Source: an uncultured Clostridia bacterium
GTDB taxonomy: Bacteria > Bacillota > Clostridia > Christensenellales > UBA1242
Length of the DNA stretch: 64,000 nt
Assembly (NCBI GenBank): GCA_944384375.1
Contig: CALWTE010000026.1
Location: 1,382 to 65,381 of the forward strand
Reading direction: 5' to 3'
A program made the position numbers and the translations under genes. Position 1 is the first letter of the stretch, and the number at the start of each line of letters is the position of its first letter. Positions 17,690 to 42,032 of the stretch are shown in pieces. Under the pieces are notes generated by a model. It ran no database searches and was not told the origin of the DNA. It worked only from the letters and a program-made list of their open reading frames with translations.

Positions 17690-17718
17690 ATTTTTCTCCT
17701 TAGTTTTTTCAAAATTAA

Positions 17719-26457: not shown

Positions 26458-26610
26458 CAAAATTCCTCCCTTTTTTTGCCCGTAAAAAAAGTTATTTTTC
26501 TAAAAATTACATTTACATTAATTATTTTATCAAAAACGACAGAAAAACACAAACAAAAATACATTGTTTTACTAAATTCCTTACATTTTTTAGTTTGTTT
26601 CAGTTTAACA

Positions 26611-26649: not shown

Positions 26650-28614
26650 CTAAAAATCAAAGTCATCATCGTCATTTGATAGAACTATACGGTTACGCTC
26701 TTTAATGTCGTAAAATACATTTTCTTCGTTTAATGATTTAGGTAATATGTATGGCTCGTCAATTTTAGATAAGTTATAAATGTGAGCACAGTTATATGAA
26801 GGAGTGAATGTGCTACGCAAAGCCTTTTCCTTAAACATAGAAACAATCATTTCGCCGTCTTTTAAGTAGCCTAATTCGTCAGGAGTAATTAGGGCACGGC
26901 TAACTTTTTGCTTGCTTGTTGACTTAGTCGTCTCATTCTTGCCCTTACTTTCACTCGTGCTTTCTGTCTCTACACTTGTTTGACCACAACGAGTACTAAA
27001 TTCTTCCTTAGTTTTTTGATTTTCTGTACCTAAGTAGATGTGTACGTTACAGTTAGATTTGATAACTTCGGCAATCGCGTCACCATAGTTAATACTAATC
27101 TGCGCATAATCTTGCACAACAAGTAATAGGCAAATACCGATACCACGCGAAACCGTGATAATTGATTCCATACCTTCAATTTTAGGCATGTTGGCAAACT
27201 CGTCTAGTACAAAGTAAACGTGTCTAGGCAGGGCAGAACGCTCACGAGTAGACTTTTCTACCAAAGTTTTATATAGACTTAGCACCATTAATTGTGAAAT
27301 AGGGTGACGCGTCTTCTTTTCAAAAGGCACCTGAATAAACAGGGCAGAAGGTCTGTCTGCAAACCTAGAAAAGTCCATTTCGTCCTTACTTGTCGCATAA
27401 CAAACTTCGTTATCAGCAAAAATGTTTACCGCATTTGCAATCATACCAAAGAACGAACGCGCTGTAAGTGGCGAGTTGTTTACAATAGGACTAACCAAAG
27501 AAACGGCGGTACTTAGTTTGTCCCTACCTTGAATATATTTTTGCAGAGACTCATAAGGCTTGTCAGGGTTAGGGTCTTTAGTATTACATATCTTATATAA
27601 GTTATAGAAGTTAAATCTTTCTTCCGTCATGCCAAGTCTCGGGTCTGCTGAATCTTCTAGCATACACAACATTATACCCAACACAAAGTCTTGCGCACCT
27701 TGTTGCCATGAGGTCTCGTTAGACCCACCATTTACAGGGGCAAGAGTAATTGCGATGTCTTTTAAGTCGTCAAAAGCCGAACCAACTAACTTCTTGTACG
27801 TAGCGTTTATATAGGTTTCCAAATCTTCACGGTTAGGGAAGGCTATTCCGTCCAACTCGTACCATTCATTATTATATACATTGGAAATAATGCGCAAATG
27901 ACAGTCCGCAGGATTTTCGTTTATATGTTTAATTACATTACTTCTTAAATGAATTGCTTTTTGATAGTTGCGGAATGGCTTTGTCATAGGATTCCAACAC
28001 GTACTTTCAGAAGGGTCACGCAAGTTAAAGCGGAGAATATCATAACCTTCTTGCTTTAATTTATTTGCGTGCAATTCATACAATTCACACTTTACGTCCG
28101 AAATAACCAAACTAGGTTTGGACTTTGTGCTACTTAAAATTTGAACGGTCGGGTTGATAAATCCCGTCGTCTTACCACTACCAGTAGTACCGATTACTAA
28201 CGTATGCCAAACTTGATGTAGTAAATTTACTTTGATTCGGCTACCACCCTCTAATTGAGCTCTAATAGGCACACCGTCAGTATGCGCGTGCAATTCCCTA
28301 AAATAGCACCCGTCATATTTTTTATCTAACTCACGGGTTGTGAGCCATTCGGAATCAAAATATTGGTCTTTTGGCTTATTGCCTTTGCTTTTATCACTTG
28401 AGTTGAAAAGTTTCTTGCCGTCAGCAACCTTTAATAATATAAATATGATAAAGCAAATAAAGAGTAGGGCAAATATCGCCCACGACCAAGTACCTATCAT
28501 ACCTTCAGGTGTGATAGAACCTGTTTCAATTAAAGACCCGATTAGCGCAGATAGTATAAAACTACCCACAGCCCCACCTAGCATTAAAAAGATAAATTTA
28601 AAAAATTTACTCAA
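26650..28614 (-). CDS. Type IV secretion coupling protein, TraG/VirD4 family
   Basis: TTG start lies 7 nt after GGAGGG. Two N-terminal TM helices. Walker A LVIGTTGSGKTT. TraG/VirD4-type Walker B VYFVLDEFANMP. CLLLVVQDYAQI block. Acidic C-terminus SNDDDDFDF. TAG stop. Confidence 0.85.
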   Translation of the reverse strand: MSKFFKFIFLMLGGAVGSFILSALIGSLIETGSITPEGMIGTWSWAIFALLFICFIIFILLKVADGKKLFNSSDKSKGNKPKDQYFDSEWLTTRELDKKYDGCYFRELHAHTDGVPIRAQLEGGSRIKVNLLHQVWHTLVIGTTGSGKTTGFINPTVQILSSTKSKPSLVISDVKCELYELHANKLKQEGYDILRFNLRDPSESTCWNPMTKPFRNYQKAIHLRSNVIKHINENPADCHLRIISNVYNNEWYELDGIAFPNREDLETYINATYKKLVGSAFDDLKDIAITLAPVNGGSNETSWQQGAQDFVLGIMLCMLEDSADPRLGMTEERFNFYNLYKICNTKDPNPDKPYESLQKYIQGRDKLSTAVSLVSPIVNNSPLTARSFFGMIANAVNIFADNEVCYATSKDEMDFSRFADRPSALFIQVPFEKKTRHPISQLMVLSLYKTLVEKSTRERSALPRHVYFVLDEFANMPKIEGMESIITVSRGIGICLLLVVQDYAQISINYGDAIAEVIKSNCNVHIYLGTENQKTKEEFSTRCGQTSVETESTSESKGKNETTKSTSKQKVSRALITPDELGYLKDGEMIVSMFKEKALRSTFTPSYNCAHIYNLSKIDEPYILPKSLNEENVFYDIKERNRIVLSNDDDDFDF

Positions 28615-28884
28615 AATACAACCCTCCGCTTTTAATTTTACAATTTTTTTTAAAATTCACGCAAATTTTGGTTATTTTGCCCAAAAATTAAAAAAAATTT
28701 AAAATTTCTTAAAAATTGTACTTAATTAATTTGCTTTTGTCAAATTTATTTGATAATATAATTACATAAATTTGTGTTTATGCGCAAAATTTTTAAACGA
28801 TTTGCTAAATTTTTAGTATAGTTTTTAAAAGTTCGCAAAACATAATTTAAACTAAGTTCAAAAAATATCGGAGGTTAAATTTTT

Positions 28885-29322
28885 ATGAGCGCTCTTTTAT
28901 TCCAAATGGCAAATACGATGATGAACGTAATGAGTAATAGCACTTTATTAAGTTCTAGCACAGGCTCTAGTAATAATTACGATGAGTTGCCAGCAGAATA
29001 CGGATGGGTAACTACTGTTACTAATGCAATTGATGTATTATTATGGCCTTTGCTAATTCTCGTAGGTTCAGCAGGTATGATTTATGCTATTTACTTAGGT
29101 GTAAACCTTGCACGTGCCGATAGTGCAGACAAGCAACAAGAAGCTAAGAAACGTTTAATTAATGCTATTATAGGTCTTGCTGTAATTATTGCGTTAATCT
29201 TATTGTTGAAGTTGTTTGTAAGTTACTTGCCTACATGGTTGAACATAGACCCAGAAGGTCCTAATGATTCTCCAGAAACTGGTGGCGTTATCGGTTTGCT
29301 AAGTATGTTCTTAGGTGGCTAA
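28885..29322 (+). CDS. Small membrane protein, VirB2/TrbC-like T4SS pilin candidate (145 aa)
   Basis: GGAGG RBS. An N-terminal leader of about 45 aa is followed by two hydrophobic helices (AIDVLLWPLLILVGSAGMIYAIYLGV and LINAIIGLAVIIALILLLKLFV). They are joined by a short charged loop (NLARADSADKQQEAKKR), the classic VirB2/TrbC layout. First gene of the operon facing the coupling-protein gene. Assignment rests on architecture and context only. Confidence 0.5.
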   Translation: MSALLFQMANTMMNVMSNSTLLSSSTGSSNNYDELPAEYGWVTTVTNAIDVLLWPLLILVGSAGMIYAIYLGVNLARADSADKQQEAKKRLINAIIGLAVIIALILLLKLFVSYLPTWLNIDPEGPNDSPETGGVIGLLSMFLGG

Positions 29323-29435
29323 TTTAAAATTAAAAATTTTGCAAAATTTTCAAGGATAGTTGATAGTTAATAGTAAATAGCATAGTTTGCTATTCTATTG
29401 GCTAGCGACTATTTTTGTTTATTAAATGGTGATAT

Positions 29436-31451
29436 ATGAAAATTTTAAAAGTTTTAAGTATATGCCTAATGTGCTTGACGATGACTTTTACTTTCGCTGG
29501 TTGCTCTCTGCCGTGGGGAAGTAGTGATACTGGTAGTGGGGGCGGTAGCGGGTCAGGTTCTGGCAATGGAGGCGGGCATAATATCCAGACAGGAGACACA
29601 ACTTATCCTTCACCACCCGATGTTAATTCTGCGGAAATAGAAAGAGAGATGGCGCAGTCTTATGCGTCAATAACTCAAGGGGTAAGAGCTACTTATTTAC
29701 CCGATGTTGATGAAGTTTCAAGTGATGCAGTACTACAGGCAGATAGAGAAAAATATTTAGAAAATGCCGCATATCAATATGAAATTGTGGCTACTTACAT
29801 ATTACATTCATTACAAGGCGAATATGGCGAAGGTGTTAGTTCGTCTTCTCTCAATTATGAATTTTACGCCGATACAAGTTTGTTGCCTGCTAGCGATTTA
29901 AGTGAAATAGATATTAGTTTACCCGCAATTACACCTAGCACAGGGGTTAGTTTCCGTTTTGAAACGAACGCAGGTGCTATTGATGCCCCCGTTAATGGCG
30001 TGCAATATTTAGGGCGGACTCCCGCCGAAGTGCGTGATAGTAGCCTAGCATGGCAAATGAATGGCGCTACAGGTTTCGTAGAAAGGTATAAGCAATTAGT
30101 GCAGGCAAATCTAATGGAAATTGCACTAGGTCAAGAAATTTCTTCATCTACTTCAACGGAACAAATAGAAGAGTATGCAAAGGAAATTGAAAAATTAGGT
30201 ATTCCGCAAACTCAAGAATTTAGAGACGCGGTTTATGACTATATAGCAAATTATATTATAGGCGCAGATTTAATGGCTAGAGAAAACGAGACTTTATCGT
30301 GGGTAGAACCTTATTATTCATGGGTGGAAACTATAGAACACGAAGAAACTAACGAAGACGGTAGTACAACTACATGGACAGAATATATATATCACTGTGT
30401 CCACTTTAATATGGCAACGGGTGCACAACCTGATTTGTTGCACCAAAACCACACGGATACTATTTTTACTTCTTCTACCGCTTATAAATTCGGTTATGCA
30501 GATACTATAAACAAAATTTTAGATGAAATTTTAGGTACATTTTCCAGCGACGGAACGCAAGTTTCTACTGGTTTTACGGCAGATTTTCCTACTTACACCC
30601 GTGTAGAAATTACTGACGTAGATGCGTATCGTTACTTTACTTCTTATAATGAAGAATTAGGCGAAGACGAGCGTCAAGTAATTACATCTATGGACTACCG
30701 CGAGTATAATTCACTTGTTATTTATCCAAAAGGGATTCTTGAATATGACGAAGAAGGGAACGAAGTTGTAAACTTAGAGCAACTATTGTGGCAGTTTGAT
30801 ATGTTGACAATTAGTATTGATAGCGTGCAAGATATTACATTAGATATATATATGCGGCTTCATATAGGCGGGGAAGATACAATAGTTCACCTAACTAGAA
30901 TGAATACAGATAGTACACTTAGTTATGATTACGAGAGCGAAACAGAAAATATAGATGATTATTTGTTAATTACCGAAGATGGTATAGGTTACAAACCGGA
31001 ATTTTACTTTTTGCCCGACAAGACAAACACTCGAGCAATGTATTTACCAGATTATTTGCCGATAAATTCTACTGAAATTGTTACTGGCGGTGTAACTAAT
31101 ACGACAAATAGGACATTCTATCAAGATAAGAGAACGGGTAGTCCAGAAGACGAAGGGTATTACGAAACCGAATTAGAAAATGTATATAAAAATACATTTG
31201 TAGGTAAACTAGGTAGTAGTGTGACTTTTGAAAATTCTAAAAATTTCAATCAAACTTTTACAACTACAAATTATTATGGAGAAACCGTTGATTTGAGTGA
31301 TAAATACCTTTGTCAAGACGAATGCGATTTTGTGGAATTTATTTTTGACGTGGTTGAAGATTCTTCAAATCCCGCAGATTATGATTATTCTTTTAAGTTT
31401 ATGATTAAATCTCTTTTTTGGGACGTTTCAACATTAAATGAAGAAGAATAG
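29436..31451 (+). CDS. Lipoprotein of unknown function (671 aa), T4SS-locus component
   Basis: Signal peptide with lipobox TFAG|C (MKILKVLSICLMCLTMTFTFAGC). Gly/Ser linker GSSDTGSGGGSGSGSGNGGG. A ~620-aa acidic Y/E/T-rich ectodomain follows, without a catalytic motif I can recognise. TAG stop. Confidence 0.8.
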   Translation: MKILKVLSICLMCLTMTFTFAGCSLPWGSSDTGSGGGSGSGSGNGGGHNIQTGDTTYPSPPDVNSAEIEREMAQSYASITQGVRATYLPDVDEVSSDAVLQADREKYLENAAYQYEIVATYILHSLQGEYGEGVSSSSLNYEFYADTSLLPASDLSEIDISLPAITPSTGVSFRFETNAGAIDAPVNGVQYLGRTPAEVRDSSLAWQMNGATGFVERYKQLVQANLMEIALGQEISSSTSTEQIEEYAKEIEKLGIPQTQEFRDAVYDYIANYIIGADLMARENETLSWVEPYYSWVETIEHEETNEDGSTTTWTEYIYHCVHFNMATGAQPDLLHQNHTDTIFTSSTAYKFGYADTINKILDEILGTFSSDGTQVSTGFTADFPTYTRVEITDVDAYRYFTSYNEELGEDERQVITSMDYREYNSLVIYPKGILEYDEEGNEVVNLEQLLWQFDMLTISIDSVQDITLDIYMRLHIGGEDTIVHLTRMNTDSTLSYDYESETENIDDYLLITEDGIGYKPEFYFLPDKTNTRAMYLPDYLPINSTEIVTGGVTNTTNRTFYQDKRTGSPEDEGYYETELENVYKNTFVGKLGSSVTFENSKNFNQTFTTTNYYGETVDLSDKYLCQDECDFVEFIFDVVEDSSNPADYDYSFKFMIKSLFWDVSTLNEEE

Positions 31452-31573
31452 TTTAATTTATCACAAATTTAATGATTTTTTTACATTTGTCGCTTGCCTT
31501 TATTGACTTCATTTGCTATAATTAGACAAATTAAGCGATAAATGTTTAATTAAAATAGGAGGTGAACTGGACT

Positions 31574-32716
31574 GTGAATTCACAATTAGCAGGGTTATTA
31601 GATGGCTTGTTTGATTGGCTTTCTGATGCGTTTACGACTTACATAATTGACCCTATTGTAACATTTGTAACATACTTATTTGGTGCATTGTTTTACGGTT
31701 TGCAATTAGGTATGTTCTATGTTATAGACGCTGTCCAAATGGTGGTTAGAAAAGTTGCGGGTTTGCCAGCATACAATTTAAATGGTGAGCGCACTTTCAA
31801 TTATATAGATGCTGATGGAGTAGAGCAGACGGGAGATTTGGCTCTTTACTTCTTTTCTCACCCTACTACACAAGCAGTGTTTATCTCTATTTTAGTCGCT
31901 GCTGTAATCTTACTATTTATAGCTACATTTATTGCTGTATTAAAGACTGAATTTGATACTAAAAATAGCAATGCAAAGGGTCCTATTATAGGTAGTGCAT
32001 TAAAATCAATTTTCTACTTTGCACTAGTACCTGTTGTGAGTTACTTAGGTGTTATTGTTGCAAATATTGTCTTACAGACTCTAGATTCGGCGACCAGCCG
32101 TGGTGCCTCGTCGTTTAGTTCGCAAATATTTACTGCCGCAGCGTATAATTCAAATCGAGCCCGAGATGACCCCGAATTTGCACGGGAGGTCTATGAGAGT
32201 GGGCTAATTCCAGGCGTCGCCAATATTACGTGGGATGGAGAAGGGGGACAGGCTCAGGCTCAAATTGCTGATTTAATAGATACGGCATTTCGGTCAAACT
32301 TGTATGCCGTAGGTGCTGATGCTAACACTTCAGTTACTGTCAATACGGTAGGCTCTATAGGCTTGGGGACGCGAGATTATTCCTTCCAAACTTTTGATGT
32401 GCGAGATTATGCTCTAGTATTTGAATATTATAATACACTGAAGTATAACTATTTAATTGGTTACGTCGCGGGTATAACAATACTATTCTTGCTCTTGCAA
32501 CTGTTAATAGGTGTTATACGGCGAGTCTTTGAATTAGCAATACTGTTTGTAGTATCTCCTGCAGTTGTGGCGCTGATGCCGCTAGATGGTGGAGAGAAAT
32601 TCAAAACTTGGAAAGATGCATTTATAAAACGAGTCTTTTCGGCATACGGGCCTATAATTGGTCTAAACCTAGTCTTTATGATACTAGAAGTTCTACAGAC
32701 CGTACGGCTGTTCTAA
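31574..32716 (+). CDS. Polytopic membrane protein, VirB6/TrbL/PrgH/TcpH-like candidate
   Basis: Likely GTG start at 31574, 11 nt after AGGAGG (31557-31562); the ORF-track start at 31562 overlaps that RBS. About six TM helices (e.g. AVFISILVAAVILLFIATFIAVL, IFYFALVPVVSYLGVIVANIVL, LIGYVAGITILFLLLQLLIGVI). Gene order is pilin-lipoprotein-this-VirB4. Assignment rests on topology and context only. Confidence 0.5.
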   Translation: MNSQLAGLLDGLFDWLSDAFTTYIIDPIVTFVTYLFGALFYGLQLGMFYVIDAVQMVVRKVAGLPAYNLNGERTFNYIDADGVEQTGDLALYFFSHPTTQAVFISILVAAVILLFIATFIAVLKTEFDTKNSNAKGPIIGSALKSIFYFALVPVVSYLGVIVANIVLQTLDSATSRGASSFSSQIFTAAAYNSNRARDDPEFAREVYESGLIPGVANITWDGEGGQAQAQIADLIDTAFRSNLYAVGADANTSVTVNTVGSIGLGTRDYSFQTFDVRDYALVFEYYNTLKYNYLIGYVAGITILFLLLQLLIGVIRRVFELAILFVVSPAVVALMPLDGGEKFKTWKDAFIKRVFSAYGPIIGLNLVFMILEVLQTVRLF

Positions 32717-32738
32717 TTTCAAATGTGAATGTTTGCAA

Positions 32739-32917
32739 AATTGAAAATTGAAAAGAATATGTACATAAATATAAAAAGATTTAATAAGCGATGAAGATTT
32801 TTAATTTGCTTGCGTTCTTATAGTTATAGAAAATTTATTGTTCACAAAAAAATAAGAATTATTTACAGTAAAAGCGATTTAGCCAAATCAAAAGCGGACT
32901 AAATTCAATTTTCAATT
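32739..32917. repeat. 14-bp perfect inverted repeat pair bracketing ~150 bp of the spacer between the two VirB6-region ORFs
   Basis: aattgaaaattgaa (32739-32752) and its exact reverse complement ttcaattttcaatt (32904-32917). Confidence 0.7.
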
Positions 32918-32936
32918 CGCTTGCGTACCGCAAGCG
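32918..32936 (+). other. GC-rich 8-bp hairpin just upstream of the RBS of the next ORF
   Basis: cgcttgcg-tac-cgcaagcg, unusually GC-rich for this AT-rich spacer, followed directly by AGGGGG and the ATG at 32949. Confidence 0.6.
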
Positions 32937-32948
32937 CAGGGGGTGCCT

Positions 32949-34301
32949 ATGTTTGAAGGTTTATATAATTCAATAATGCAGTTAATCTTTATAGTGACGG
33001 CATTAGTTTCTGTTAAAAGTTTAACAGATATGATAACGCAACTTGTCGGACAGGGTGACGCCCTAAAAGACGGTAAAGAAACAGGCCAAGAAGTATTGAA
33101 ACGTGTTGGCCAAACTGCTGCAATCGGTGCAGTAGGTGCTGGTGCTGCTTTAAAAATAGGTCAGGCTGGCCTTGGCGTTGCCAGAAGTGTTGGTGGTACT
33201 ATAGCACGTTCTGACACTGTAGGGGCAATAAAACAAGGTGTTGGCAGTAGTATTCATTCGCTAAGAAATAAAGCATCAGAGTGGTACACGGGTACCGAAT
33301 TCGGACATAATCGTCAAGAAAAGAAAGCTACTGAAGGTTTTGCTGCAATGTTTGGTGACCCTGATGCGCAAGTTAATAGGAGCCGTTGGGAGAATTTTAA
33401 GGGAAATCATCAAAAATTGACAAACGCAGGGAATAAATTTTCTAGAGGTGCTCATTGGGTTGCTGACCCATTAGTTTCTGGAGTTTCAGAAACATTTAAA
33501 GGTGCAGCTGATGAAGCACGAGGTATAGGTAAATGGGCCTCTGGAGGACTAAAAAATATTAAAGCGGATTTAGCAAATAACCCTGAGTTGCAGGGCTTTG
33601 GCGGTGTTGACGGTTCTATAAAACAAGCAAAAGACTCTATTCAAAATCTTTTTGGTGGTGTAGTAAAAACTACTGGTGTGCATAAGCAAATTGAAGATTT
33701 AGTTGGTGCTGATGCTATGCCTTTTGAGAAAGGAGCTAGTAAGTATTATCGTGCGATTACAGGGGAGAAAGTAGGCTCTGAAAAGAAAGCAGACGAGAAA
33801 AAGAAAGCAGCAGAAGCTCAAGTAGCACAAGCTGATGCAGTTCAAAAAGCAATGCAGAATGACTTATCGCAAATGACAGATGCTATAGTAAAAGCAATTA
33901 AAAATATTAATATGCAAGGTGCTACTGTAACTTTTTCTGATGTCGCAATAGATGAAAAAGGCAATCCTGTGTTCCCAGGAACTGGTGAGGTAGGTGCGGC
34001 GAAAACTTCTGCTGTTACTGAAAATAAAGAAGGGAAAACAGAAGTACAAGGTAAAGTTGATATCAATTCAGAACAAATTGTTAATGCCATCAATTCTCTT
34101 AAAGAAAGTATTAATACAACAGATGCTAATATTGGTGCTAGATTAACAGCTCTTGCTGCTGGTATGGCTATAATAGGTAATAAGATTGAGACCGGTACTA
34201 GGGAGATAACGGGAGCGGTAGATAAAACTGAAAAAGCTACCAAAGATGTAGGCGATAAATTAAAAGGTAAACAAACTACTTTAGACGACTTCACTAAATA
34301 A
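32949..34301 (+). CDS. Membrane-anchored G/A/K-rich protein (450 aa), possible C-terminal partner of the VirB6-like protein
   Basis: ATG at 32949 lies 5 nt after AGGGGG (the ORF-track GTG at 32943 overlaps the RBS). One N-terminal TM helix (IMQLIFIVTALVSVKSL). Low-complexity G/A/K-rich and coiled-coil-like sequence follows (KKADEKKKAAEAQVAQADAVQKAMQ). No enzymatic motif. TAA stop. Confidence 0.7.
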   Translation: MFEGLYNSIMQLIFIVTALVSVKSLTDMITQLVGQGDALKDGKETGQEVLKRVGQTAAIGAVGAGAALKIGQAGLGVARSVGGTIARSDTVGAIKQGVGSSIHSLRNKASEWYTGTEFGHNRQEKKATEGFAAMFGDPDAQVNRSRWENFKGNHQKLTNAGNKFSRGAHWVADPLVSGVSETFKGAADEARGIGKWASGGLKNIKADLANNPELQGFGGVDGSIKQAKDSIQNLFGGVVKTTGVHKQIEDLVGADAMPFEKGASKYYRAITGEKVGSEKKADEKKKAAEAQVAQADAVQKAMQNDLSQMTDAIVKAIKNINMQGATVTFSDVAIDEKGNPVFPGTGEVGAAKTSAVTENKEGKTEVQGKVDINSEQIVNAINSLKESINTTDANIGARLTALAAGMAIIGNKIETGTREITGAVDKTEKATKDVGDKLKGKQTTLDDFTK

Positions 34302-34311
34302 TTTTAAAATT

Positions 34312-34335
34312 CAGTCCTTATTAGGGCTGTTTTTT
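34312..34335 (+). terminator. Rho-independent terminator ending the pilin-to-450-aa operon
   Basis: cagtcc-ttatta-gggctg (6 bp, one G-U) followed by T6. Confidence 0.5.
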
Positions 34336-34515
34336 GCTAATAATTATAAATTTTAGCAAATTTTTTAAAATTATTTTAATTTTATCTAGGTTTTAAGAAT
34401 TAAATGTTTATTTTGCTTAATAAATTTTTATACGTTTTATTATTTTGGCAAATCTTAAATCTATTTATTTTCTGTAATTTCTCTCTAATTTTAGTAAAAA
34501 TTAACTAAATTCGTT

Positions 34516-34543
34516 TTGATTTTGCGAGTATTTATATTATAAT
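34516..34543 (+). promoter_or_regulatory. Sigma-A-like promoter of the VirB4-like gene
   Basis: TTGATT (34516-34521), 16-nt spacer, TATAAT (34538-34543), 35 nt upstream of the ATG. Confidence 0.5.
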
Positions 34544-34578
34544 TATGCAAAGACTAATAAAAATAAGGGGTTAATTAA

Positions 34579-37302
34579 ATGAAGTATATTCCGCGTAGAA
34601 CAAAAGTAAAAATGGAATTCTACAAAGGTATTACCTTTGCTGACATTATTTACCTTGCCATTGCTATAGGTGTTTTGTTACTCTTAGTGCTGAGTACTGG
34701 TATTGATACTATGACAAAAGTTTATTTGGGTGTTGCATGGGTTGCTATTTGTGTGTCTTTCTTTATGCCTGTCGCTGACGGCAAACGAATGTACGCTACA
34801 CTAGGGATTTTATTCAAGTTCTTCGCCGTGCAGAAAAAATTTAGTAAAAAGCCTATGCGCAAGCACAAAGACATAAAGGAAATTATTCCTTACGTTGATA
34901 TTAAAAACAATATGATAGACTACAAAGATTATTATGCGGTAGTCCTAGAAGTTAGCCCTATTCAGTTTTGGTTATTAAACGAAGAAAAACGTGAATTAGT
35001 TGTCCAAACTTTTGCTAATGCATTGCGCTCTTTAACGGTTGGGCAGTCTGCTGCAATTGTTAAAACGGCTAAACCTATGCTTTTAAACGACTTTATCTAC
35101 AATGAAGACCGAAAGTACGACGAAGTAATGGAATTAGCAAACGAAAAAGTTATGTCTAGGGAAGAGATGGATGCTCGTAGCATAATTTTTGAATCGCGTA
35201 TGCAAGATTTACGTGATTTAAGAGATATGGGACAAACATTTTTGGACCACTATTATATTGTAGTGTTTGATAAGGACAGAGACGGTCTAGAGACTGCTGC
35301 GTCTAACATAAGTGTAACACTATCACGTGGTGTTGTGCCTATGCACGCTACACGTCTGAAAAACAAAGATTTGGTCGTTTTCTTAAAAACAAATTTTGGG
35401 CAAGAAATTGATGAAAATGATTTGTCTCTTATACCTATGGACGAATATGCTGAATGGACAATGCCTGACGAAGTCGTTTTTAAAACTAGCAAAACTATAA
35501 TTAATAATCATACATACCGCAACTTTGCTATTACTGATTTCCCTGTGGAAGTTCCGAACGCATGGGCTATCCCGTTTTTTAGCATGGCAAATACTAAGGT
35601 CGTTGTTAAATTTACTCCATTACAAAAAGAAAAAAGTGAACGCGTAATTGACCGTTCCATTGTAGAACTAGAAGCAAGAATGCGTTCTACATTTAAATCA
35701 AGTAAGCAAATTGACTTACAAACCCAACATGAAACTTTGCGCGATTTATTGAATGACTTGAAAGTTGGTAACGAAGACTTGTATGACGTGCATATTCACA
35801 TTATGTGTGAAGAAAATATGAAAAAAGATGTTCGTTCTATCCTAAAACAAAGCGGTTTCAAGTATTCTGAAATGTTTGGTAGGCAGTTTGATGCTTTTGT
35901 TAGTACTAACATTAGCCAGTTTGAAAATGTGGAAGAAGCCAGCCGAAACATTCAAACTACTTCCGTTGCCGCAATGTTCCCCTTTATTTCTAGCAATTTG
36001 CAGGATAAAAAAGGCTTTTACATAGGTAATAATGGCGCGCCTGTGTTCCTTGATTTCTTTGTGAATACGGACAAAGAAAACCCTCTGAGTAACGAGCGTG
36101 TAAATGCAAATATGATTGTAATAGGTAAGTCTGGTAGTGGTAAGTCCTATGCTACAAAGACGTTGCTATCTAACCTTGCTGCCGATAATACTCGTATATT
36201 TATTCTAGACCCCGAAAAAGAATATGATGTCTTGACACGAAATCTAAAAGGTAAGTATATTGACGTAGGTAGTTCGGTATATGGTATTTTAAATCCTTTC
36301 CATATTATGACCACATTGTCTGACGATGTAGAAGAAGAGGTGGAATTGACTGGTGAAGAAACGGAAGAAGAACTTGCCGAAATCAAGAAAAAACAAGAGA
36401 TGACAGCGAAAAAATCTTCCGATACCTATAACCAGCACTTGCAATTCTTAGAGGAATTCTTCCGTATCATTTTTGACGGTCTAGAAGGTGATGCATTTGA
36501 AATCCTAAACTCACTTGTAGTTGATATTTATAAGGCTAAAAACATTAACAACGAGACTGATTTATCTACATTAAAGCCAGAAGATTATCCTATTTTTGAT
36601 GATTTATATAATTTAATTGTTAAACGCAGTGAGACAGAAACTGATTCTTATATGCGACACAATTTGCAAATTTTGCAGGCATATGTGCAGAAGTTTGCTA
36701 CTGGTGGACGTAACGCAAAACTTTGGAATGGCCCTACAAGTATTGAAACGAATGAAAACTTTGTTTGTTTTAACTTCCAGTCTTTGATTAGTAACCGTAA
36801 TAGTACGGTTGCCAGTGCCCAAATGATGCTAGTTTTTAAATATTTGGATAATGAAATTTTGAAAAATAAAGACTTTAACCAAAAATTTAAAACACAACGT
36901 AAAATTATAATAGCGGTTGATGAAGCACACTTGTTTATTAACCCTAAATATCCAGTAGCGCTTGAATTTATGGCGCAAATGGCTAAACGTATCCGTAAAT
37001 ATATGGGTATGCAAATCATTATTACACAAAACATTAAAGACTTTATCGGTAGTGCAGATATTGAGAGACAGGCGAGTGCGGTAATTAACGCCAGCCAGTA
37101 CTCTATGATTTTCTCTCTTGCTCCAAATGACATCTCCGACCTTGTAAACTTATATAGAAACGCGGGAGAAATCAACAAAGGCGAGCAAGATACCATCGTT
37201 ACTGCAGAACGTGGTTGTTGTTTCTTTATCGCTAGCCCTTATTCTCGTACTACTTTCTATGTACGAGCAAATGACACAATCAAGAAAATTGCAGATATTT
37301 AA
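34579..37302 (+). CDS. VirB4-family T4SS ATPase with fused VirB3/PrgI-like N-terminal membrane segment (907 aa)
   Basis: Two N-terminal TM helices (ITFADIIYLAIAIGVLLLLVLS, VYLGVAWVAICVSFFMPV). Walker A MIVIGKSGSGKSYATKTLL. Walker B KIIIAVDEAHLFI. MQIIITQNIKDF block. Size and layout are typical of VirB4/TraE/PrgJ/TcpF-type ATPases. TAA stop. Confidence 0.85.
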   Translation: MKYIPRRTKVKMEFYKGITFADIIYLAIAIGVLLLLVLSTGIDTMTKVYLGVAWVAICVSFFMPVADGKRMYATLGILFKFFAVQKKFSKKPMRKHKDIKEIIPYVDIKNNMIDYKDYYAVVLEVSPIQFWLLNEEKRELVVQTFANALRSLTVGQSAAIVKTAKPMLLNDFIYNEDRKYDEVMELANEKVMSREEMDARSIIFESRMQDLRDLRDMGQTFLDHYYIVVFDKDRDGLETAASNISVTLSRGVVPMHATRLKNKDLVVFLKTNFGQEIDENDLSLIPMDEYAEWTMPDEVVFKTSKTIINNHTYRNFAITDFPVEVPNAWAIPFFSMANTKVVVKFTPLQKEKSERVIDRSIVELEARMRSTFKSSKQIDLQTQHETLRDLLNDLKVGNEDLYDVHIHIMCEENMKKDVRSILKQSGFKYSEMFGRQFDAFVSTNISQFENVEEASRNIQTTSVAAMFPFISSNLQDKKGFYIGNNGAPVFLDFFVNTDKENPLSNERVNANMIVIGKSGSGKSYATKTLLSNLAADNTRIFILDPEKEYDVLTRNLKGKYIDVGSSVYGILNPFHIMTTLSDDVEEEVELTGEETEEELAEIKKKQEMTAKKSSDTYNQHLQFLEEFFRIIFDGLEGDAFEILNSLVVDIYKAKNINNETDLSTLKPEDYPIFDDLYNLIVKRSETETDSYMRHNLQILQAYVQKFATGGRNAKLWNGPTSIETNENFVCFNFQSLISNRNSTVASAQMMLVFKYLDNEILKNKDFNQKFKTQRKIIIAVDEAHLFINPKYPVALEFMAQMAKRIRKYMGMQIIITQNIKDFIGSADIERQASAVINASQYSMIFSLAPNDISDLVNLYRNAGEINKGEQDTIVTAERGCCFFIASPYSRTTFYVRANDTIKKIADI

Positions 37303-37304
37303 GA

Positions 37305-37330
37305 AAAGCCCTTATCTATGGGGCTTTTTT
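37305..37330 (+). terminator. Rho-independent terminator of the VirB4-like gene
   Basis: aaagccc-ttatctatg-gggcttt followed by a T-run. Confidence 0.65.
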
Positions 37331-37401
37331 GCATTTTTTTAAACAACAAAAATTATAGTTTTTTATAAATGTAATCATTCAAACTTTTTTATAAAAGCAT
37401 A

Positions 37402-37430
37402 TTGCATTTTTTATGATTTCGTGATATAAT
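37402..37430 (+). promoter_or_regulatory. Sigma-A-like promoter (extended -10) of the 1373-aa gene
   Basis: TTGCAT (37402-37407), 17-nt spacer ending in TGa, TATAAT (37425-37430). Confidence 0.6.
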
Positions 37431-37466
37431 AATAAGAGAAAGAGATATTAGGGGGATAATATATCT

Positions 37467-40400
37467 ATGAGTTTAGACGCAATTAAAAATAAATCATTTT
37501 GGTTTACTAGAGCAAAAGTAAAGAATTCTAACCGTTGGCCTTTAGGTAGTTCAAGATACATTGAGGACTTGTCTAATACTATTACTAAGACTTATTATGG
37601 TGAGTCTTTTCAAAACGCAAAGGTTAGTTCAGAGGCTCAATTTAGGAGGGTTTTTAAAGATTCTGCTATTTTACAAGGATTAAAAACCAACTTCACTCCA
37701 GAGCAAAGGGAAGCGTACTCTCTATTGAGTAACGGTTTCACAACTAACGCAATTTTGGGTAAATTACGTGATAGCGAAATTAAGCAGGCTGTTATTAAGC
37801 CAAAACTTGCAGTAGCTAGCAATATTTCTACGCCAAACACTGACGAATGGGCGGAAATTGCAAGCGATGAGCCTGTATTTACACCTAGGGAATTTGTAAA
37901 CTTAGCAAATGCGGAACGTATTGCTAATCACCCGGAAATTTTAATAGAAAACCAAACTCCGCCTGTTTATAGTGATAAAATAGGCTATTTACCTCCAAAA
38001 TTAGAGAATAATAGGGACTTCAATGCTTACGCTAATATGCAGAAAATTGAAAATTTTGACAAATTTGTCCAAAATTTAGAGAAAAATGCAGGTATTCGCA
38101 TTAGACCTGACGACGCTTTGGAAGAAGACCAAACAAAGTTAGTACGACGCAGATTTTTTGGCCCATTAAATACAATTAGAAAAGTATTTACAACGTACTC
38201 TGTTAGTACAGGTATGAAAAAAACAGGTTGGCCAGCTCGTTACACCCTTTCTTATCCTTCTAACAACACGCAATCTGAGCAGGTTTATGGTATTTTAAAA
38301 CGATTAAGTCAAATATCTGTAGAAGATTATGCCGAAATTACGGAGAAGACAATTTCATTAATTGAACCAACGAATTTACCTTCATTAGAGGAGTTTGGGC
38401 AAGATAAAGATTTAATTATGAAAGCCGCTAGTTGTTTGGTTGCTAGTGAATTAAGTCATATGATAGGTTTAAACAAAGATGACGCTAGAATTTTTAGTGA
38501 TACATTTAAGCTTGAAGCAACTGGATACATTAGTCACTTATCTAACCAAAACAGTGACAAACTTATGCCTTTGATTGCAGACTATTACGCAATTGCTACT
38601 AGTAATTTTGCCCAAGATTTCAATGTTTCTATAAAGCAATATGCAGAATCAAAAGGAATTGCTAGTGATAAAGCATATAATATATATGACGTTTTATACG
38701 CTAGACAAGCACCACAAGTTACCGTTACAGCTTCAGCGAGCCAAAGCAACGATTTCGGCAGAATTTTGCAAGACTACTTAAACTACAGACAAAGACAACA
38801 AAGTCAACAACAATCTGGTCAAAGTGGTAACAGTCAACCACAACCTAGTCAAAATAATAATGAACAACAAGACACTTCAGTTGAGCAAGAAATTTTTGAG
38901 TGGCAAGCCGAAGTTGCTAGACAGATTATGGCACAACAAGAAAATCAACAACAATCTGGTCAAAATAACAACGGTCAACAAGACAACTCGGTTGAGCAAG
39001 AAATTTCTAAGTGGCAAGCCGAAGTTGCTAGACAGATTATGGCACAAAGCAATAGTCAACAACAAACAAATCAAAATACAGGTTTAATTCCACCTACTAC
39101 TTTAACTAGAGAAGAAGCTCAAGAATATGTAATGCCAGAGAAAGGTTCAAGAATGGTGGAGTCAATAAAGACCCCTGATGGTGATAGGAATGCCCAAATC
39201 AACCCTGAATTACGTTCATATATTAGAGTAGTTAAAGATGGCAAGTTAGTGCCTATTGACGAAAACACCAATGTTTACTTTATTGGTAGTGATGTTTCTA
39301 ACCTTCAAGCAGTTGTAAATGGTGTAGTACAAGACGTTGTTGAAAATAGAAATTATCAATTAATCAATGCAACTACAAATGCAGAAGTTGAGCCTAATGA
39401 CGATTTCGTTTTAACTGATGACATTAGAGTAGTCCCTAGACAAGTAAGCAATAGGAGACGAGATGAATTAGGAGCAGACTTGAGAAATGATATTGTTTTA
39501 ACTGAAGGAGACATAGTAATTGATAGGGCTGCTAGCCTATATTCAATAAACAATGAATATCAAAGTAATGTTAATTACTACTCAAATACTTCTAGTGAAG
39601 TACAGATGCAAATAAATGCCGGTGATAGCAGTAGGGCGGTTGATGTTTACACACCATACATTCCAGTAAATGAACATGGTGTAATTCACCCTGACCCAAC
39701 ACCACCTGAACGTAGTCAACCAGATGATAGTGTTGACCCCAAAGAATTGTTTGGCGAACAAATTGTAGGAAAGCCTAGAGACAATACATATATAGGTATA
39801 ACTGGAGTTCATAACCCAGATGGTACTATAACCCCAACTCCATTAAAGCCTTATAACTTTAATCAAGTAGAACAGTCGCAAGTTAATGCAATCGAGCAAG
39901 AGATTACAGCGCAACAAACACAAATTGCCAACAATATAAAAGACTTTAATGCAATGGCAAACACTACTAGGGTAAGACAAACACAATTTGATGGTTATAA
40001 AAATGCTACAGAAAGGGAAATTACTGCTCAACAAGATAATATTGCTAGAAATGTTCAAGACTTTAATGCAATGGCAAACACTACAGAAACTACAGCACCT
40101 AGACCAAGTGTTCAACCTAGTACCCAACCCGCACAAAACAGAAACAGTGCAAGTGTAGCTCAAAGAAATCCAAACTGGCACCGCGATAGAGCATTAGCTG
40201 AATTGCAACGTGGCAGAAAACCATTACCTTCTAAAGAAGATTTAGAATTGAAGCAAACACCAGCAAATGATACGGGGGCGGGTGCTAATGACGAAGAATT
40301 TAAAAAGCTTCGTGCTGATGCAAGACGTAAAAAACAACAAAAGAGAAGTCTTGCTGAATTACGTCGTAATAGAGAAAAAGAAACTCAAAATTTTGGAGAT

Positions 40401-41588
40401 TATCAAGTTATGACTGAAGAAGAAAAGATTGCAGAGGCGGATAGGAGAGCTGCTGAAATGGGAAAACGTCTATATGAGTCTCAAAGGCAAATAAATGGCG
40501 GCAAAACTCTAGAAGAGTTAGACAAAGAAATTTCAGAAAGAGCAAAAGCAATATACTATGGAACTTATAACCCAAGCCAAGTGCAAGACGACGTTATTCA
40601 AGAAGAAACAAAGAACAACACTGCAAATACCAAAGACGATTTCCACACTAGATATGAAGACTTGTCCCCTGAAATGCAGAGATTAATTTACCCTGAAAGG
40701 TATTATTCAAAAGAAGAATTACAAAAGAGGTTGTATGGCGAGCAACGTATTGATACAAGTGCTCAAGAGATTGCTCCAGTAGAGCAAGAAGAAACCTTTG
40801 ATACTCAAAACGTAGAACAAAACCAAGTAGACAACAGACAGTTTATTGAAATGGCGGGACGTTCTCCTAGTGAGTTTGGCACAGACCCAGTATACGATAA
40901 TAATTCGGTTAAGAAGTGCCAAGATATGGTAGCAAAAGTTGTGCAAGATTACACAATGACTTGTTGCGACCTTTGGGGAGAATCTTCACGAGCAAAAAAT
41001 AGTATTGAAAGCAAAGAGGAAAGCGAAGTTTATCGTACAAGGGCTAGAACAGGTGGTGTAGTTAAGAGCATTATGGATGACGTGATAAACGGTAGACCAA
41101 ATAAACGCTTTAATGGAAAGAATGCGCCAGTTGAATTTGCTGTAGCAAAACAATTGTTAAGTGTTGGACACGATATAGTTAACCAAATTGACCAATACCG
41201 CAAAGACAATCCAAATGTGTTTAAAGATAAAGCCTTCACATCGGCTGCATTTAAAGGCTATTTAATCTCTTTAGCAAAGAGCCAGTTGCCTACTTCTGCT
41301 TATTACGATGTTGACAAACAAAAGAAAATCCTTAGTGATAATCGTTTGGCTGAATATGGTAAGCAAGTTGTAGAAGAAAGTATTAGACAAGAAGTTTATA
41401 GAATTTTAGATACTGGTTCTAATGCTGTACAAGCAAAGAAAGAGCAAGACCTTCAAAATGGCGCAGACAAAAAACAGGTTGCCAAAGTAGAGGCCGAAAA
41501 AGACAAAGTTCTAGATAATGTACAAAAAGACAAATCAAAAGACAATGTTCAACAAACTTTAGACGAGTTTGGCGAGCAAATGCAATAG
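37467..41588 (+). CDS. Large soluble repeat-rich protein (1373 aa), unknown function, T4SS-locus associated
   Basis: GGGGG RBS. No signal peptide or TM helix. Q/N/E/K-rich low-complexity stretches. Two internal tandem duplications (see repeat features). No relaxase His-triad, nuclease, primase or hydrolase motif that I can recognise. TAG stop. Confidence 0.85.
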   Translation: MSLDAIKNKSFWFTRAKVKNSNRWPLGSSRYIEDLSNTITKTYYGESFQNAKVSSEAQFRRVFKDSAILQGLKTNFTPEQREAYSLLSNGFTTNAILGKLRDSEIKQAVIKPKLAVASNISTPNTDEWAEIASDEPVFTPREFVNLANAERIANHPEILIENQTPPVYSDKIGYLPPKLENNRDFNAYANMQKIENFDKFVQNLEKNAGIRIRPDDALEEDQTKLVRRRFFGPLNTIRKVFTTYSVSTGMKKTGWPARYTLSYPSNNTQSEQVYGILKRLSQISVEDYAEITEKTISLIEPTNLPSLEEFGQDKDLIMKAASCLVASELSHMIGLNKDDARIFSDTFKLEATGYISHLSNQNSDKLMPLIADYYAIATSNFAQDFNVSIKQYAESKGIASDKAYNIYDVLYARQAPQVTVTASASQSNDFGRILQDYLNYRQRQQSQQQSGQSGNSQPQPSQNNNEQQDTSVEQEIFEWQAEVARQIMAQQENQQQSGQNNNGQQDNSVEQEISKWQAEVARQIMAQSNSQQQTNQNTGLIPPTTLTREEAQEYVMPEKGSRMVESIKTPDGDRNAQINPELRSYIRVVKDGKLVPIDENTNVYFIGSDVSNLQAVVNGVVQDVVENRNYQLINATTNAEVEPNDDFVLTDDIRVVPRQVSNRRRDELGADLRNDIVLTEGDIVIDRAASLYSINNEYQSNVNYYSNTSSEVQMQINAGDSSRAVDVYTPYIPVNEHGVIHPDPTPPERSQPDDSVDPKELFGEQIVGKPRDNTYIGITGVHNPDGTITPTPLKPYNFNQVEQSQVNAIEQEITAQQTQIANNIKDFNAMANTTRVRQTQFDGYKNATEREITAQQDNIARNVQDFNAMANTTETTAPRPSVQPSTQPAQNRNSASVAQRNPNWHRDRALAELQRGRKPLPSKEDLELKQTPANDTGAGANDEEFKKLRADARRKKQQKRSLAELRRNREKETQNFGDYQVMTEEEKIAEADRRAAEMGKRLYESQRQINGGKTLEELDKEISERAKAIYYGTYNPSQVQDDVIQEETKNNTANTKDDFHTRYEDLSPEMQRLIYPERYYSKEELQKRLYGEQRIDTSAQEIAPVEQEETFDTQNVEQNQVDNRQFIEMAGRSPSEFGTDPVYDNNSVKKCQDMVAKVVQDYTMTCCDLWGESSRAKNSIESKEESEVYRTRARTGGVVKSIMDDVINGRPNKRFNGKNAPVEFAVAKQLLSVGHDIVNQIDQYRKDNPNVFKDKAFTSAAFKGYLISLAKSQLPTSAYYDVDKQKKILSDNRLAEYGKQVVEESIRQEVYRILDTGSNAVQAKKEQDLQNGADKKQVAKVEAEKDKVLDNVQKDKSKDNVQQTLDEFGEQMQ
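38806..39047 (+). repeat. In-frame tandem duplication (about 111-nt period, 2 copies) inside the 1373-aa gene
   Basis: gttgagcaagaaattt(t/c)t(g/a)agtggcaagccgaagttgctagacagattatggcacaa occurs at 38880-38936 and 38991-39047 (2 differences in 57 nt). Each copy is preceded by caacaatctggtcaaa... It encodes (S)VEQEI(F/S)(E/K)WQAEVARQIMAQ. Confidence 0.85.
39894..40085 (+). repeat. Second in-frame duplication (117-nt period, 2 diverged copies) inside the 1373-aa gene
   Basis: E(Q/R)EITAQQ..IA(N/R)N(I/V)(K/Q)DFNAMANTT occurs twice. The nucleotide core agactttaatgcaatggcaaacacta is identical at 39940-39965 and 40057-40082. Confidence 0.8.
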
Positions 41589-41597
41589 GAGTGTATT

Positions 41598-41849
41598 ATG
41601 GAAGAATTAAAACCAGATGACCCAAAAGTTGTAGAAATGAGTTTCAATGTTTTTGAAAAGATTTTGACATCTATTGATTACAAGAGTAAAGATGAGTTGT
41701 TGAAACTTTCAGATTTAATGATTGAAAAGGTTCAAGACCCTAAATATCCTGAAATTTTGCGTATGGCTTATGCTGATGCTCGCAGAAAAATAGAAATTTT
41801 GAATTTAGAACAACTCAATGAAATTAAACAAATAATTGTGTCTGATTAA
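41598..41849 (+). CDS. Small acidic helical protein (83 aa), translationally coupled to the 1373-aa gene
   Basis: AGGAG overlaps the upstream TAG stop (caaTAGGAGtgtattATG). No TM helix. TAA stop, followed by a strong terminator. Confidence 0.65.
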   Translation: MEELKPDDPKVVEMSFNVFEKILTSIDYKSKDELLKLSDLMIEKVQDPKYPEILRMAYADARRKIEILNLEQLNEIKQIIVSD

Positions 41850-41858
41850 TTAAAAAAG

Positions 41859-41890
41859 TGGTTTAAGTATATTGCTTAAACCATTTTTTT
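41859..41890 (+). terminator. Rho-independent terminator closing the T4SS-like locus
   Basis: tggtttaag-tatattg-cttaaacca (9-bp stem) followed by T7. The downstream sequence tttttttgttgttgttataagga echoes the start of the 16214/52266 repeat. Confidence 0.75.
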
Positions 41891-42032
41891 GTTGTTGTTA
41901 TAAGGAATATAGATTAAAATCACAATTAATTAAGTTGTTATTTATATTGTTACAATAAAGAAAAATAAAGTTTAAGTTAAAATCAATTTAAAAATTTCTA
42001 TTTTGATTTTTCAAAATTGCAAAGCATTTTAT

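Follow-up and report, generated by a model that had tools for sequence, protein, structure and literature searches.

Gene content of the locus

The 64,000-nucleotide stretch analysed here (hereafter the window; contig CALWTE010000026.1 of assembly GCA_944384375.1, positions 1,382 to 65,381) comes from an uncultured bacterium of the lineage UBA1242 (Clostridia, Christensenellales). Between positions 26650 and 41849 it carries the genes of a type IV secretion system (T4SS). Judged by its sequence, this locus is shown to be a complete minimal T4SS of the monoderm type, belonging to the subtype of the integrative and conjugative elements (ICEs) of Mycoplasma, in which relaxase and recombinase were lost or never present. 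A first-pass annotation of the window had listed seven components in the cluster, and profile searches, translations and topology predictions confirmed all of them and their positions. The relationship of the machinery to Mycoplasma ICEs, which emerges from the profile matches below, had not been recognized at that stage.

The coupling ATPase VirD4/TraG is encoded on the minus strand (26650..28614). It is matched by PF02534 (183 bits), PF12696 and PF10412, with 113 bits for TraG-D_C, and it passes the cut-off of the NCBIfam family conju_CD1115 (NF045973; 279 bits for a cut-off of 250). In the PDB it matches TrwB with an E-value of 9e-7. The translation contains the motifs GTTGSGKTT and LDEFANMP, two N-terminal transmembrane (TM) helices are predicted, and all 23 orthologues compared retain intact Walker A and B motifs. 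The VirB4 ATPase (34579..37302, plus strand) aligns over its full length with the Mycoplasma-ICE VirB4 model NF045975 (Mbov_0397; 584.3 bits, E-value 3e-175). This score lies just under the equivalog cut-off of 590 bits, and the protein is read here as a member of the same subtype, not as an equivalog. VirB4 also matches PF19044 and the structure 4AG5 (E-value 6e-40), and scores 136 bits with the CD1110 model (cut-off 325). Its motifs GKSGSGKS and VDEAH are invariant in 17 of 17 orthologues. The two TM helices at its N-terminus, which can be aligned with the N-terminus of the Mycoplasma-type model, would be compatible with a fused VirB3-like segment. The VirD4 and VirB4 assignments, which the first-pass annotation had set as a test of its own reading, hold in these profile hidden Markov model searches.

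The virD4 gene and the pilin gene diverge from an intergenic region (28615..28884) with two promoter-like sites. The one on the minus strand (TTGACA-17-TACAAT) matches at 11 of 12 positions, and that on the plus strand is weaker. The pilin gene (28885..29322, plus strand) encodes a protein of 145 residues with two hydrophobic helices separated by a charged loop. Its earlier description as VirB2/TrbC-like is supported by PF18895 (T4SS_pilin), with 33.1 bits for a cut-off of 26.6; NF045849 (Mbov_0395, pilin-like) gives 37.6 bits, just below the cut-off of 40. Relatives display one to four paralogues at this position. The next gene (29436..31451, plus strand) encodes a surface lipoprotein of 671 residues with the lipobox FAGC, of which 20 homologues were detected in all. 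Neither this lipoprotein nor the large proteins matched any NCBIfam or Pfam family in the cluster scans. The AlphaFold2 (AF2) model of the lipoprotein has a pLDDT of 81.5 and a pTM of 0.76, and Foldseek returned no fold match in the PDB below an E-value of 0.1. The protein may represent a new fold or domain arrangement. Its identification as a VirB8/TcpC-like subunit was rejected, since the model is confident and yet nothing in the PDB lies below that E-value.

The two following open reading frames (ORFs) had been annotated as a VirB6-like protein with six TM helices and a separate G/A/K-rich membrane protein. Both ORFs are present, but their alignments indicate that they are not separate genes: they are the halves of one ancestral extended VirB6 gene. 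The N-terminal half (31562..32716, plus strand, 384 residues) is a polytopic membrane protein recognized by the MMCAP2_0566 family (NF045848; 135.8 bits, cut-off 90) and by the Mbov_0396 TM protein family (NF045889; 90.9 bits, cut-off 70). The C-terminal half (32943..34301, plus strand, 452 residues) is composed of one TM helix and a G/A/K-rich hydrophilic extension, which gives about 6+1 TM helices over both halves. In the related locus L003 (loci of relatives are cited by their L numbers), a single ORF of 892 residues aligns with the N-terminal half through its residues 6-358 and with the C-terminal half through its residues 343-410 and onwards. Most relatives possess the extended VirB6 as one ORF of 781-1245 residues. 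In the window, the halves are parted by about 190-226 nt with stop codons (32717-32942), and the gene is split likewise in L001 and L010, where the gap is shorter and both halves are conserved. The fission could be a tolerated split or the first sign of decay.

Downstream of virB4, the gene 37467..41588 (plus strand) encodes a soluble acidic protein of 1373 residues, without TM segment, which is a candidate substrate or accessory factor. The alignment of its orthologues reveals two conserved domains, an all-alpha N-domain (residues 1-415) and a C-domain, with variable Q/N/E repeats between them. The repeats of the gene (38795-39075 and 39885-40084; tandem 111-nt, 84% identical, and 117-nt-spaced, 75% identical) encode Q/N-rich units and units of the type EQEITAQQ..DFNAMANTT, in a region that is hypervariable among orthologues. 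Only 53 cluster representatives of this family were found among 1.84 billion proteins. The AF2 model of the N-domain (pLDDT 75, pTM 0.79) has no fold match in the PDB, relaxase-like folds included; the C-domain and the neighbouring protein of 83 residues were not modelled. Neither the 1373-residue nor the 83-residue protein matched a family in Pfam or NCBIfam. A hidden relaxase, primase or nuclease in the 1373-residue protein is unsupported on these grounds. The gene of the 83-residue protein (41598..41849, plus strand), an acidic helical protein without TM segment, starts 10 nt past the stop codon of the preceding gene, behind the ribosome-binding site AGGAG, in agreement with the translational coupling noted at first. 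It is followed by the gene of a membrane-anchored surface protein of 361 residues (42084..43169, plus strand) with Listeria-Bacteroides repeats (PF09479), which is syntenic with the cluster.

On the other side of the cluster, two giant surface proteins are encoded with a Rho-derived gene between them. The first giant is a lipoprotein of 4888 residues (1453..16119, plus strand; lipobox FAGC). The second one, of 2793 residues (18079..26460, minus strand), carries a signal at its N-terminus and is anchored by a TM segment at its C-terminus; its gene lies downstream of virD4 in transcription. Against NCBIfam and Pfam, the giants gave only a GLUG motif (in the 4888-residue protein) and one sub-threshold repeat. 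The Rho-derived protein (16454..17761, minus strand, 435 residues) aligns with the N-terminal (OB-like) and ATPase domains of Rho. It was first listed simply as a Rho homologue, but its P-loop is degenerate, the Lys of the Walker A motif being replaced by Gln. The T4SS and the giant surface proteins together occupy about 42 kb of the window.

Every substantial ORF of the window was compared with Pfam and NCBIfam. Among those remaining, core genes are represented by rpoB, rpoC, spoIIID and ttcA, which had already been recognized as neighbours, by spo0A and greA, which are added here, and by the genes of PFOR and of a DUF362 Fe-S protein. Surface proteins are those of 343, 361, 2793 and 4888 residues. 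No relaxase, integrase or recombinase, replication or partition gene was detected in the 64 kb, nor a DDE (Mutator-like) transposase of the CDS22 type or flanking inverted repeats, nor a tRNA gene or any Rfam family. These scans bear out the list of missing functions given by the first-pass annotation, which also included the cell-wall hydrolase. The similarity in composition between the T4SS genes and the core genes, previously judged by eye, has been measured: the correlation is 0.94 for relative synonymous codon usage and 0.96 for tetranucleotides, and the GC content at third codon positions is 0.29 versus 0.32.

Concerning the transcription signals, terminator-like hairpins were detected by scanning after the C-terminal half of VirB6 (34312..34329, plus strand), after virB4 (37302..37330, plus strand) and after the gene of the 83-residue protein (41851..41891, plus strand, bidirectional). 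Terminator-like sites are modestly enriched in the window (17, versus 9.3 +/- 3.5 in shuffled sequence). Promoter-like sites show no excess (60 versus 54.7 +/- 7.5). A further terminator near 26611 and a promoter at 37402 did not come from the scan and can be recognized only by eye. Several transcription units are plausible, and the terminators proposed for them at 34312, 37302 and 41851 were found; the promoters proposed with them are not supported, since their counts are at the shuffled level, and a constitutive wiring of the locus cannot be argued from the sequence.

Conservation and inheritance of the gene cluster

The distribution of VirB4 was scanned in one genome per GTDB species. At least 462 genomes contain a relative, and the 80 best loci belong to 80 different assemblies, with one locus each. 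All 80 are metagenome-assembled genomes of uncultured bacteria from animal guts. Most bear the labels Christensenella sp., Clostridia bacterium, Catabacter or Ca. Caccovivens, and a few are labelled otherwise (for instance Lachnospiraceae, Eubacteriales and one Rickettsiales). The last of these (L025, CALXXG010000033.1), deposited as "uncultured Rickettsiales bacterium", contains a Clostridia-type virB4 and probably results from a binning or labelling error. Close homologues of VirB4 number more than 335, with a near-constant length and an identity graded from 100% to 53%.

Beside rpoBC or other housekeeping genes, the gene order can be followed in relatives down to about 50% VirB4 identity. 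At 80, 72 and 63% of VirB4 identity, it is kept without change: giant (minus strand), VirD4 (minus strand), pilin, lipoprotein, VirB6, VirB4, large soluble protein, protein of about 84 residues and Flg_new protein. In place of the 2793-residue giant, the relatives present an ORF of 2488-2903 residues adjoining virD4. The locus at 80% identity (L001, 13042-17889) contains three additional genes between virB4 and the large soluble protein, encoding a polysaccharide (peptidoglycan-type) deacetylase (Polysacc_deac_1), a single-stranded DNA-binding protein (SSB) of 225 residues and a Flg_new protein of 707 residues. In the relatives at 72%, spoIIID and ttcA come after the T4SS block, whereas in the relative at 63% rpoB and rpoC follow it directly. 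Among the relatives at about 54% identity, L008 has a whole cluster beside other core genes, and L007 and L009 have a broken one: L007 has a lone virB4 right after the ribosomal-protein/rpoA/L17 operon, and L009 has VirB4 and a protein of 1036 residues without family assignment among mfd, recN, ogg and ppa. In other deep lineages virB4 adjoins iPGM/greA or fba-hflX, and lone copies of virD4 (36-40% identity) are found among Spo0A/SecA, aminoacyl-tRNA synthetases or PolA.

The ORFs of 89 loci were clustered, and six recurrent synteny classes were obtained, with housekeeping neighbours throughout. A lipoprotein occupies the same position in classes A and A'. The family of the 83-residue protein is detectable in 22 loci of these two classes, directly after virB4 in L015, and is followed by the gene of the 361-residue protein in 8 loci. 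In several synteny classes, PemK-type toxin genes are found no more than a few kb from virB4 (L008:21784-22125, L009:12888-13515 and cluster c16 in 11 loci). The position of the 1373-residue protein is conserved across sublineages, but its sequence is not. Its positional analogues (c25 and c22) and that of the lipoprotein (c53) were not accepted as homologues, with hhalign probabilities of at most 16%, and have diverged past recognition. When accessory proteins at the surface and in the cytoplasm diverge fast while the ATPases change slowly, as here, this is what would be expected of parts that meet a foreign partner.

The homologues of the giants show that both are genetically tied to the T4SS in other lineages, and across the clade the fast-evolving soluble protein is tied to it as well. 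The C-terminal region of the 2793-residue protein, anchor included, is homologous to giants of L091, L092, L093, L101 and L096 (E-values from 1e-5 to 1e-57). In the first four loci the homologous giant, of 2488-2864 residues, is located directly after virD4, and in L096 a homologue of 2532 residues lies near a lone virD4. The 4888-residue lipoprotein is homologous (23-28% identity over 900-1400 residues, E-values from 1e-20 to 1e-38) to lipobox giants of roughly 3300 residues that come directly after virB4 in the loci of synteny class E, those of Ca. Caccovivens among them. The Rho-derived protein shows a comparable association. Its homologues, which have lost the P-loop altogether, are found at L093:19532-20944, L055:4867-6021, L091:20771-21865, L092:20883-21812 and L101:21116-21799. 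In the four loci where the position is visible (L091, L092, L093 and L101), the homologue is each time the next gene after the VirD4-linked giant, and in L055 it lies near VirB6-VirB4. The protein is a conserved Rho-derived pseudo-ATPase, possibly tied to the T4SS.

In Mantel tests on 27-29 loci, pairwise distances of VirB4 are correlated with those of two adjacent genes, with r 0.90 for hflX and 0.84 for fba (p 0.0005). VirB4 is the more conserved in both comparisons, its mean distance being 0.32 versus 0.43 for hflX and 0.37 versus 0.47 for fba. Conserved synteny, co-divergence with hflX and fba, one locus per assembly, native composition and intact Walker motifs show, for the sequences compared, a vertically inherited, single-copy core gene set under strong purifying selection, with lineage-specific scattering, and not the pattern of an ICE. 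The locus is syntenic and core in the gene contexts of the 89 loci, and not patchy, and the clade that has inherited it is a large one of uncultured Clostridia of animal guts, with the family UBA1242 among its members. Together with the lack of a nearby relaxase and with the T4SS-linked giant homologues, this upholds the earlier proposal of a domesticated chromosomal T4SS tied to the giants.

As a rule, T4SS genes of this kind reside on ICEs, and the split VirB6 gene, the PemK toxin genes near virB4 in L008 and L009 and a 21-nt imperfect T-rich repeat at 16214 and 41887 could be seen as traces of an ordinary or decaying ICE, with relaxase, integrase and att sites just outside the window. The evidence against this reading is of several kinds. 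The cluster is flanked by rpoBC, spoIIID, ttcA and Spo0A on one side and by the conserved giants on the other. The same core neighbours recur at 63-80% VirB4 identity, and at greater depth the genes are scattered among housekeeping operons. The co-divergence, the single copy per assembly and the native composition point in the same direction. Direct repeats in the 64 kb are short, imperfect and AT-rich, at the level expected by chance, and were rejected as att-type sites; the 21-nt pair itself consists of low-complexity terminator tails and was judged to be due to chance. An ordinary ICE is largely refuted by these sequence comparisons and appears very improbable.

Comparison with related type IV secretion systems

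The T4SS loci of this analysis include human gut samples, and three human-gut metagenome contigs (L100, L102 and L105) contain mobile cousins in which a MobL relaxase is encoded immediately upstream of virD4. In L100 (8499-21673) the order is MobL relaxase, VirD4, a giant of 2236 residues with OmpL47-type repeats, pilin, VirB6 and VirB4, and a LexA-like repressor is also present. In L102 and L105 (L105:8621-20492), the MobL/Relaxase-family protein is accompanied by ArdC, an N6/N4 DNA methylase and a DUF3849/primase-like protein, and virB4 is followed by the gene of a protein of 827-844 residues with a T4SS_pilin domain at its end. The three cousins share with the window the order VirD4-(giant or 500-residue protein)-pilin-VirB6-VirB4, but they possess a relaxase and are not embedded in conserved core synteny. 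Their VirB4 is 28-33% identical to that of the window, versus at least 48% inside the chromosomal clade. The VirB4 of L105, the only cousin tested, reaches 574 bits with NF045975. From this architecture and these matches, the chromosomal system belongs to an otherwise conjugative T4SS subtype. Since L100 is mobile and has its giant directly after virD4, the giant beside virD4 is probably an inherited mating adhesin. Since the tools used here found MobL in the cousins, the absence of a relaxase at the chromosomal loci is considered real.

The Mycoplasma ICEs give the best sequence match, through the VirB4 model NF045975, the VirB6-like models NF045848 and NF045889 and the near match of the pilin to NF045849. 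The module of these elements (ICEA/ICEB) comprises CDS5 (VirD4), CDS13/15 (VirB3-like), CDS14 (lipoprotein), CDS16 (VirB6-like) and CDS17 (VirB4) (PMC12857230, PMC6030558). Both systems present the same order of a small protein with two TM helices, a polytopic protein and VirB4, with a surface lipoprotein in the module, and neither includes a VirB1- or VirB8-like part (PMC12857230, PMC6030558). They differ in their host, which here is a member of the Clostridia with sporulation genes and not a wall-less mollicute. They also differ in that the locus of the window has no DDE transposase, inverted repeats or multiple copies, and is chromosomally fixed and vertically inherited. Furthermore, VirB4 and the pilin of the window remain just below the NCBIfam equivalog cut-offs.

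This relationship bears on the possibility that the apparatus is domesticated for the exchange of chromosomal DNA between conspecific cells, as in Mycoplasma, either independently of a relaxase or through an unrecognized or distant one, and that it counters mutational decay in tiny asexual genomes. Mycoplasma ICEs, whose machinery is of the same type, drive the transfer of large chromosomal regions (PMC12857230, PMC6030558). The intact and conserved VirD4 scores above the cut-off of the conjugative CD1115 family, the mobile cousins with the same architecture are true conjugative elements, and an SSB gene lies inside the cluster of L001. However, no relaxase was found in the window or in the neighbourhoods examined, and the N-domain of the 1373-residue protein, which is the one large cytoplasmic protein left without assignment, has no relaxase-like fold match. 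The chromosomal transfer of Mycoplasma itself still needs an ICE with a DDE transposase. In addition, the rapid evolution of the giants, the lipoprotein and the 1373-residue protein has erased their homology from one sublineage to another, which fits a foreign partner better than self-recognition. On balance, DNA exchange is the main alternative to the favoured reading, possible but rather unlikely.

The conjugative systems of other Gram-positive bacteria (pCF10 Prg/Pcf, ICEBs1 and the "type 4C" conjugative transposons of C. difficile) resemble the window by their CD1115-family VirD4, their VirB4, their VirB6-like protein and their large mating-promoting adhesins. Contrary to the window, they encode a relaxase, a VirB1-like hydrolase and, as PrgL/TcpC, a VirB8-like protein, but they lack a VirB2-like pilin.

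Concerning its logic, the locus is nearest to the chromosomal T4SS of Patescibacteria (Candidate Phyla Radiation, CPR) and to the scattered rvh system of Rickettsiales, and concerning its sequence to the Mycoplasma ICE module. The patescibacterial T4SS, represented by SEML1_0006-0019 of Southlakia epibionticum, is likewise chromosomal, lineage-wide and relaxase-less, with PF18895-type pilins. It derives from the monoderm mating pair formation machinery MPF-FATA, and its hosts have genomes below 1 Mb without biosynthetic pathways and essential adhesins alongside (PMC12102498, PMC10633639). In Southlakia, the T4SS and the pilins are essential for epibiotic growth (PMC10633639, PMC12857230). There are also differences. 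VirD4 is always present in the clade of the window, whereas the Southlakia locus was reported without recognizable coupling protein. One to four pilins are found here, versus an array of six in Southlakia. VirB1- and VirB8-like parts are unrecognized at the locus of the window, unlike in the patescibacterial T4SS. As the phyla are different, the two cases probably arose independently. With a Mollicutes ICE VirB4 as its best model match, the VirB4 of the window is unlikely to fall inside the patescibacterial VirB4 clade, and the resemblance would be functional.

The rvh system is also a chromosomal and vertically inherited T4SS of host-dependent bacteria with reduced genomes, has an extended VirB6 and is thought to translocate effectors. 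Its genes are scattered over several islands (PMC12102498). Unlike the locus of the window, it belongs to the diderm type MPF-T, includes VirB7, VirB9 and VirB10 and has a eukaryotic host cell as partner; the sequence relationship is limited to VirB4, VirD4 and VirB6.

Possible functions of the apparatus

Ca. Caccovivens corresponds to the GTDB genus UBA11517 of the family UBA1242, order Christensenellales (PMC8035907). The genomes of UBA1242 are mostly under 1 Mb and have no amino acid, nucleotide or lipid pathways; their glycolysis is incomplete and standard transporters are missing, but sporulation genes are retained, and these bacteria are predicted to be obligate symbionts or parasites (PMC12306168). 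Clostridia of this type occur widely in the guts of animals, and in chickens an association with lower body weight has been described (PMC12306168, PMC13155120). The window fits such a genome by its spo0A and spoIIID genes, its coding density of 91% and its GC content of about 36%. A T4SS is mentioned neither in PMC12306168 nor in the 2026 chicken study (PMC13155120), and our literature search on Christensenellales/UBA1242 and T4SS found no prior description, nor any for Firmicutes. The likeness to host-dependent bacteria with reduced genomes, suggested by the first-pass annotation, is reinforced by the presence among the carriers of UBA1242, whose genomes are below 1 Mb and which are probably partner-dependent (PMC12306168).

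The lack of nucleotide biosynthesis and of standard transporters in UBA1242 (PMC12306168) could also be met by an import device, taking up DNA or other macromolecules from a partner or from the environment in the manner of Helicobacter ComB or of the archaeal Ced/Ted systems. Uptake through pili has been raised as a possibility for Patescibacteria in a FEMS review (PMC12857230), and VirD4 displays a weak match to the archaeal CedB (19 bits). This score is, however, far under the CedB cut-off of 700, and the known import T4SSs function without a VirD4-type coupling protein, whereas VirD4 is conserved throughout the present clade. Import is therefore regarded as improbable.

The reading that we favour is a domesticated, contact-dependent organ exporting protein to a partner cell. 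We give it about an even chance. Protein export is preferred here because of the missing relaxase, the fast-evolving accessory proteins and the precedent of Patescibacteria. In such an organ, the membrane- or lipid-anchored giants, the lipoprotein and possibly a short VirB2-type pilus would hold the small cell against its partner. VirB4 and VirD4 would energize a channel lined by VirB6, and VirD4 would recruit substrates from the cytoplasm, to be exported to the surface or the interior of the partner. The acidic and fast-diverging 1373-residue protein would be the best candidate substrate, with nucleic acid as an alternative. Such a scheme would sustain an epibiotic or parasitic life that depends on a partner, the role also proposed for the patescibacterial chromosomal T4SS.

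Several observations weigh against protein export by a domesticated organ. The closest characterized relatives, the Mycoplasma ICEs, move DNA and not proteins. No relaxase or recombinase was found within +/-10 kb in six annotated relatives, but the whole genome was not searched and a more distant relaxase is possible. No CHAP/SLT (VirB1-like) wall hydrolase was detected among the ORFs of the window, and no VirB8-like (NTF2-fold) subunit was matched by any family there, NTF2-like folds appearing for the lipoprotein only at E-values of 0.7-1.5. As the lipoprotein has no solved-fold match either, the crossing of the peptidoglycan wall is left unexplained. The split VirB6 gene might mean local decay, although L001 and L010 keep both halves. 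The linkage of the giants and of the Rho-like gene could reflect inherited synteny instead of shared function. Finally, we infer the reduced size of the window's own genome from its relatives and from its coding density.

A more far-reaching version of protein export can be suggested only tentatively, its probability being somewhat below even. According to this version, a second independent lineage, the spore-former-type Firmicutes with genomes below 1 Mb, would have converted its conjugation apparatus into an organ without which it could not live on other cells. VirD4, an anchored adhesin of about 2800 residues and the Rho-derived pseudo-ATPase would form a conserved module of this organ, joined by the pilin, VirB6 and VirB4. 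A bacterial host would receive from it either fast-evolving proteins or nucleic acid to which the Rho-derived protein is bound.

According to a 2025 review, Patescibacteria are the only monoderms known to have VirB2-like subunits and a T4SS that the cell requires (PMC12857230). This statement is challenged by a second lineage-wide chromosomal T4SS with a VirB2-like pilin, found in Firmicutes, which has kept VirD4 and is linked to giants. VirB2-like pilins are also present on relaxase-bearing gut elements (L105). The 42 kb devoted to the T4SS and the giants would represent roughly 4-5% of a genome of 0.8-1 Mb. For the UBA1242-type Clostridia, the conserved T4SS and its giants constitute a concrete candidate for the interaction machinery. 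Moreover, since mobile relaxase-bearing cousins persist in this habitat, the way in which a conjugative element became an organ of the cell is accessible to comparative study.

Three further observations were made on the window and on its relatives. The ORF of 702 residues located directly 3' of rpoC (52552-54660, plus strand) has a low GC content (about 0.31) and only a sub-threshold phage-fibre Fn3-like match, and no homologue was found among the fetched loci. In L095 (14154-15281), the Spo0A adjoining a lone virD4 has 375 residues, with an N-terminal extension of about 130 residues compared with the 265-residue Spo0A of the window. L093 corresponds to PPCM01000005.1, a single contig of 898,928 bp containing the cluster, which is probably a near-whole genome of the clade.

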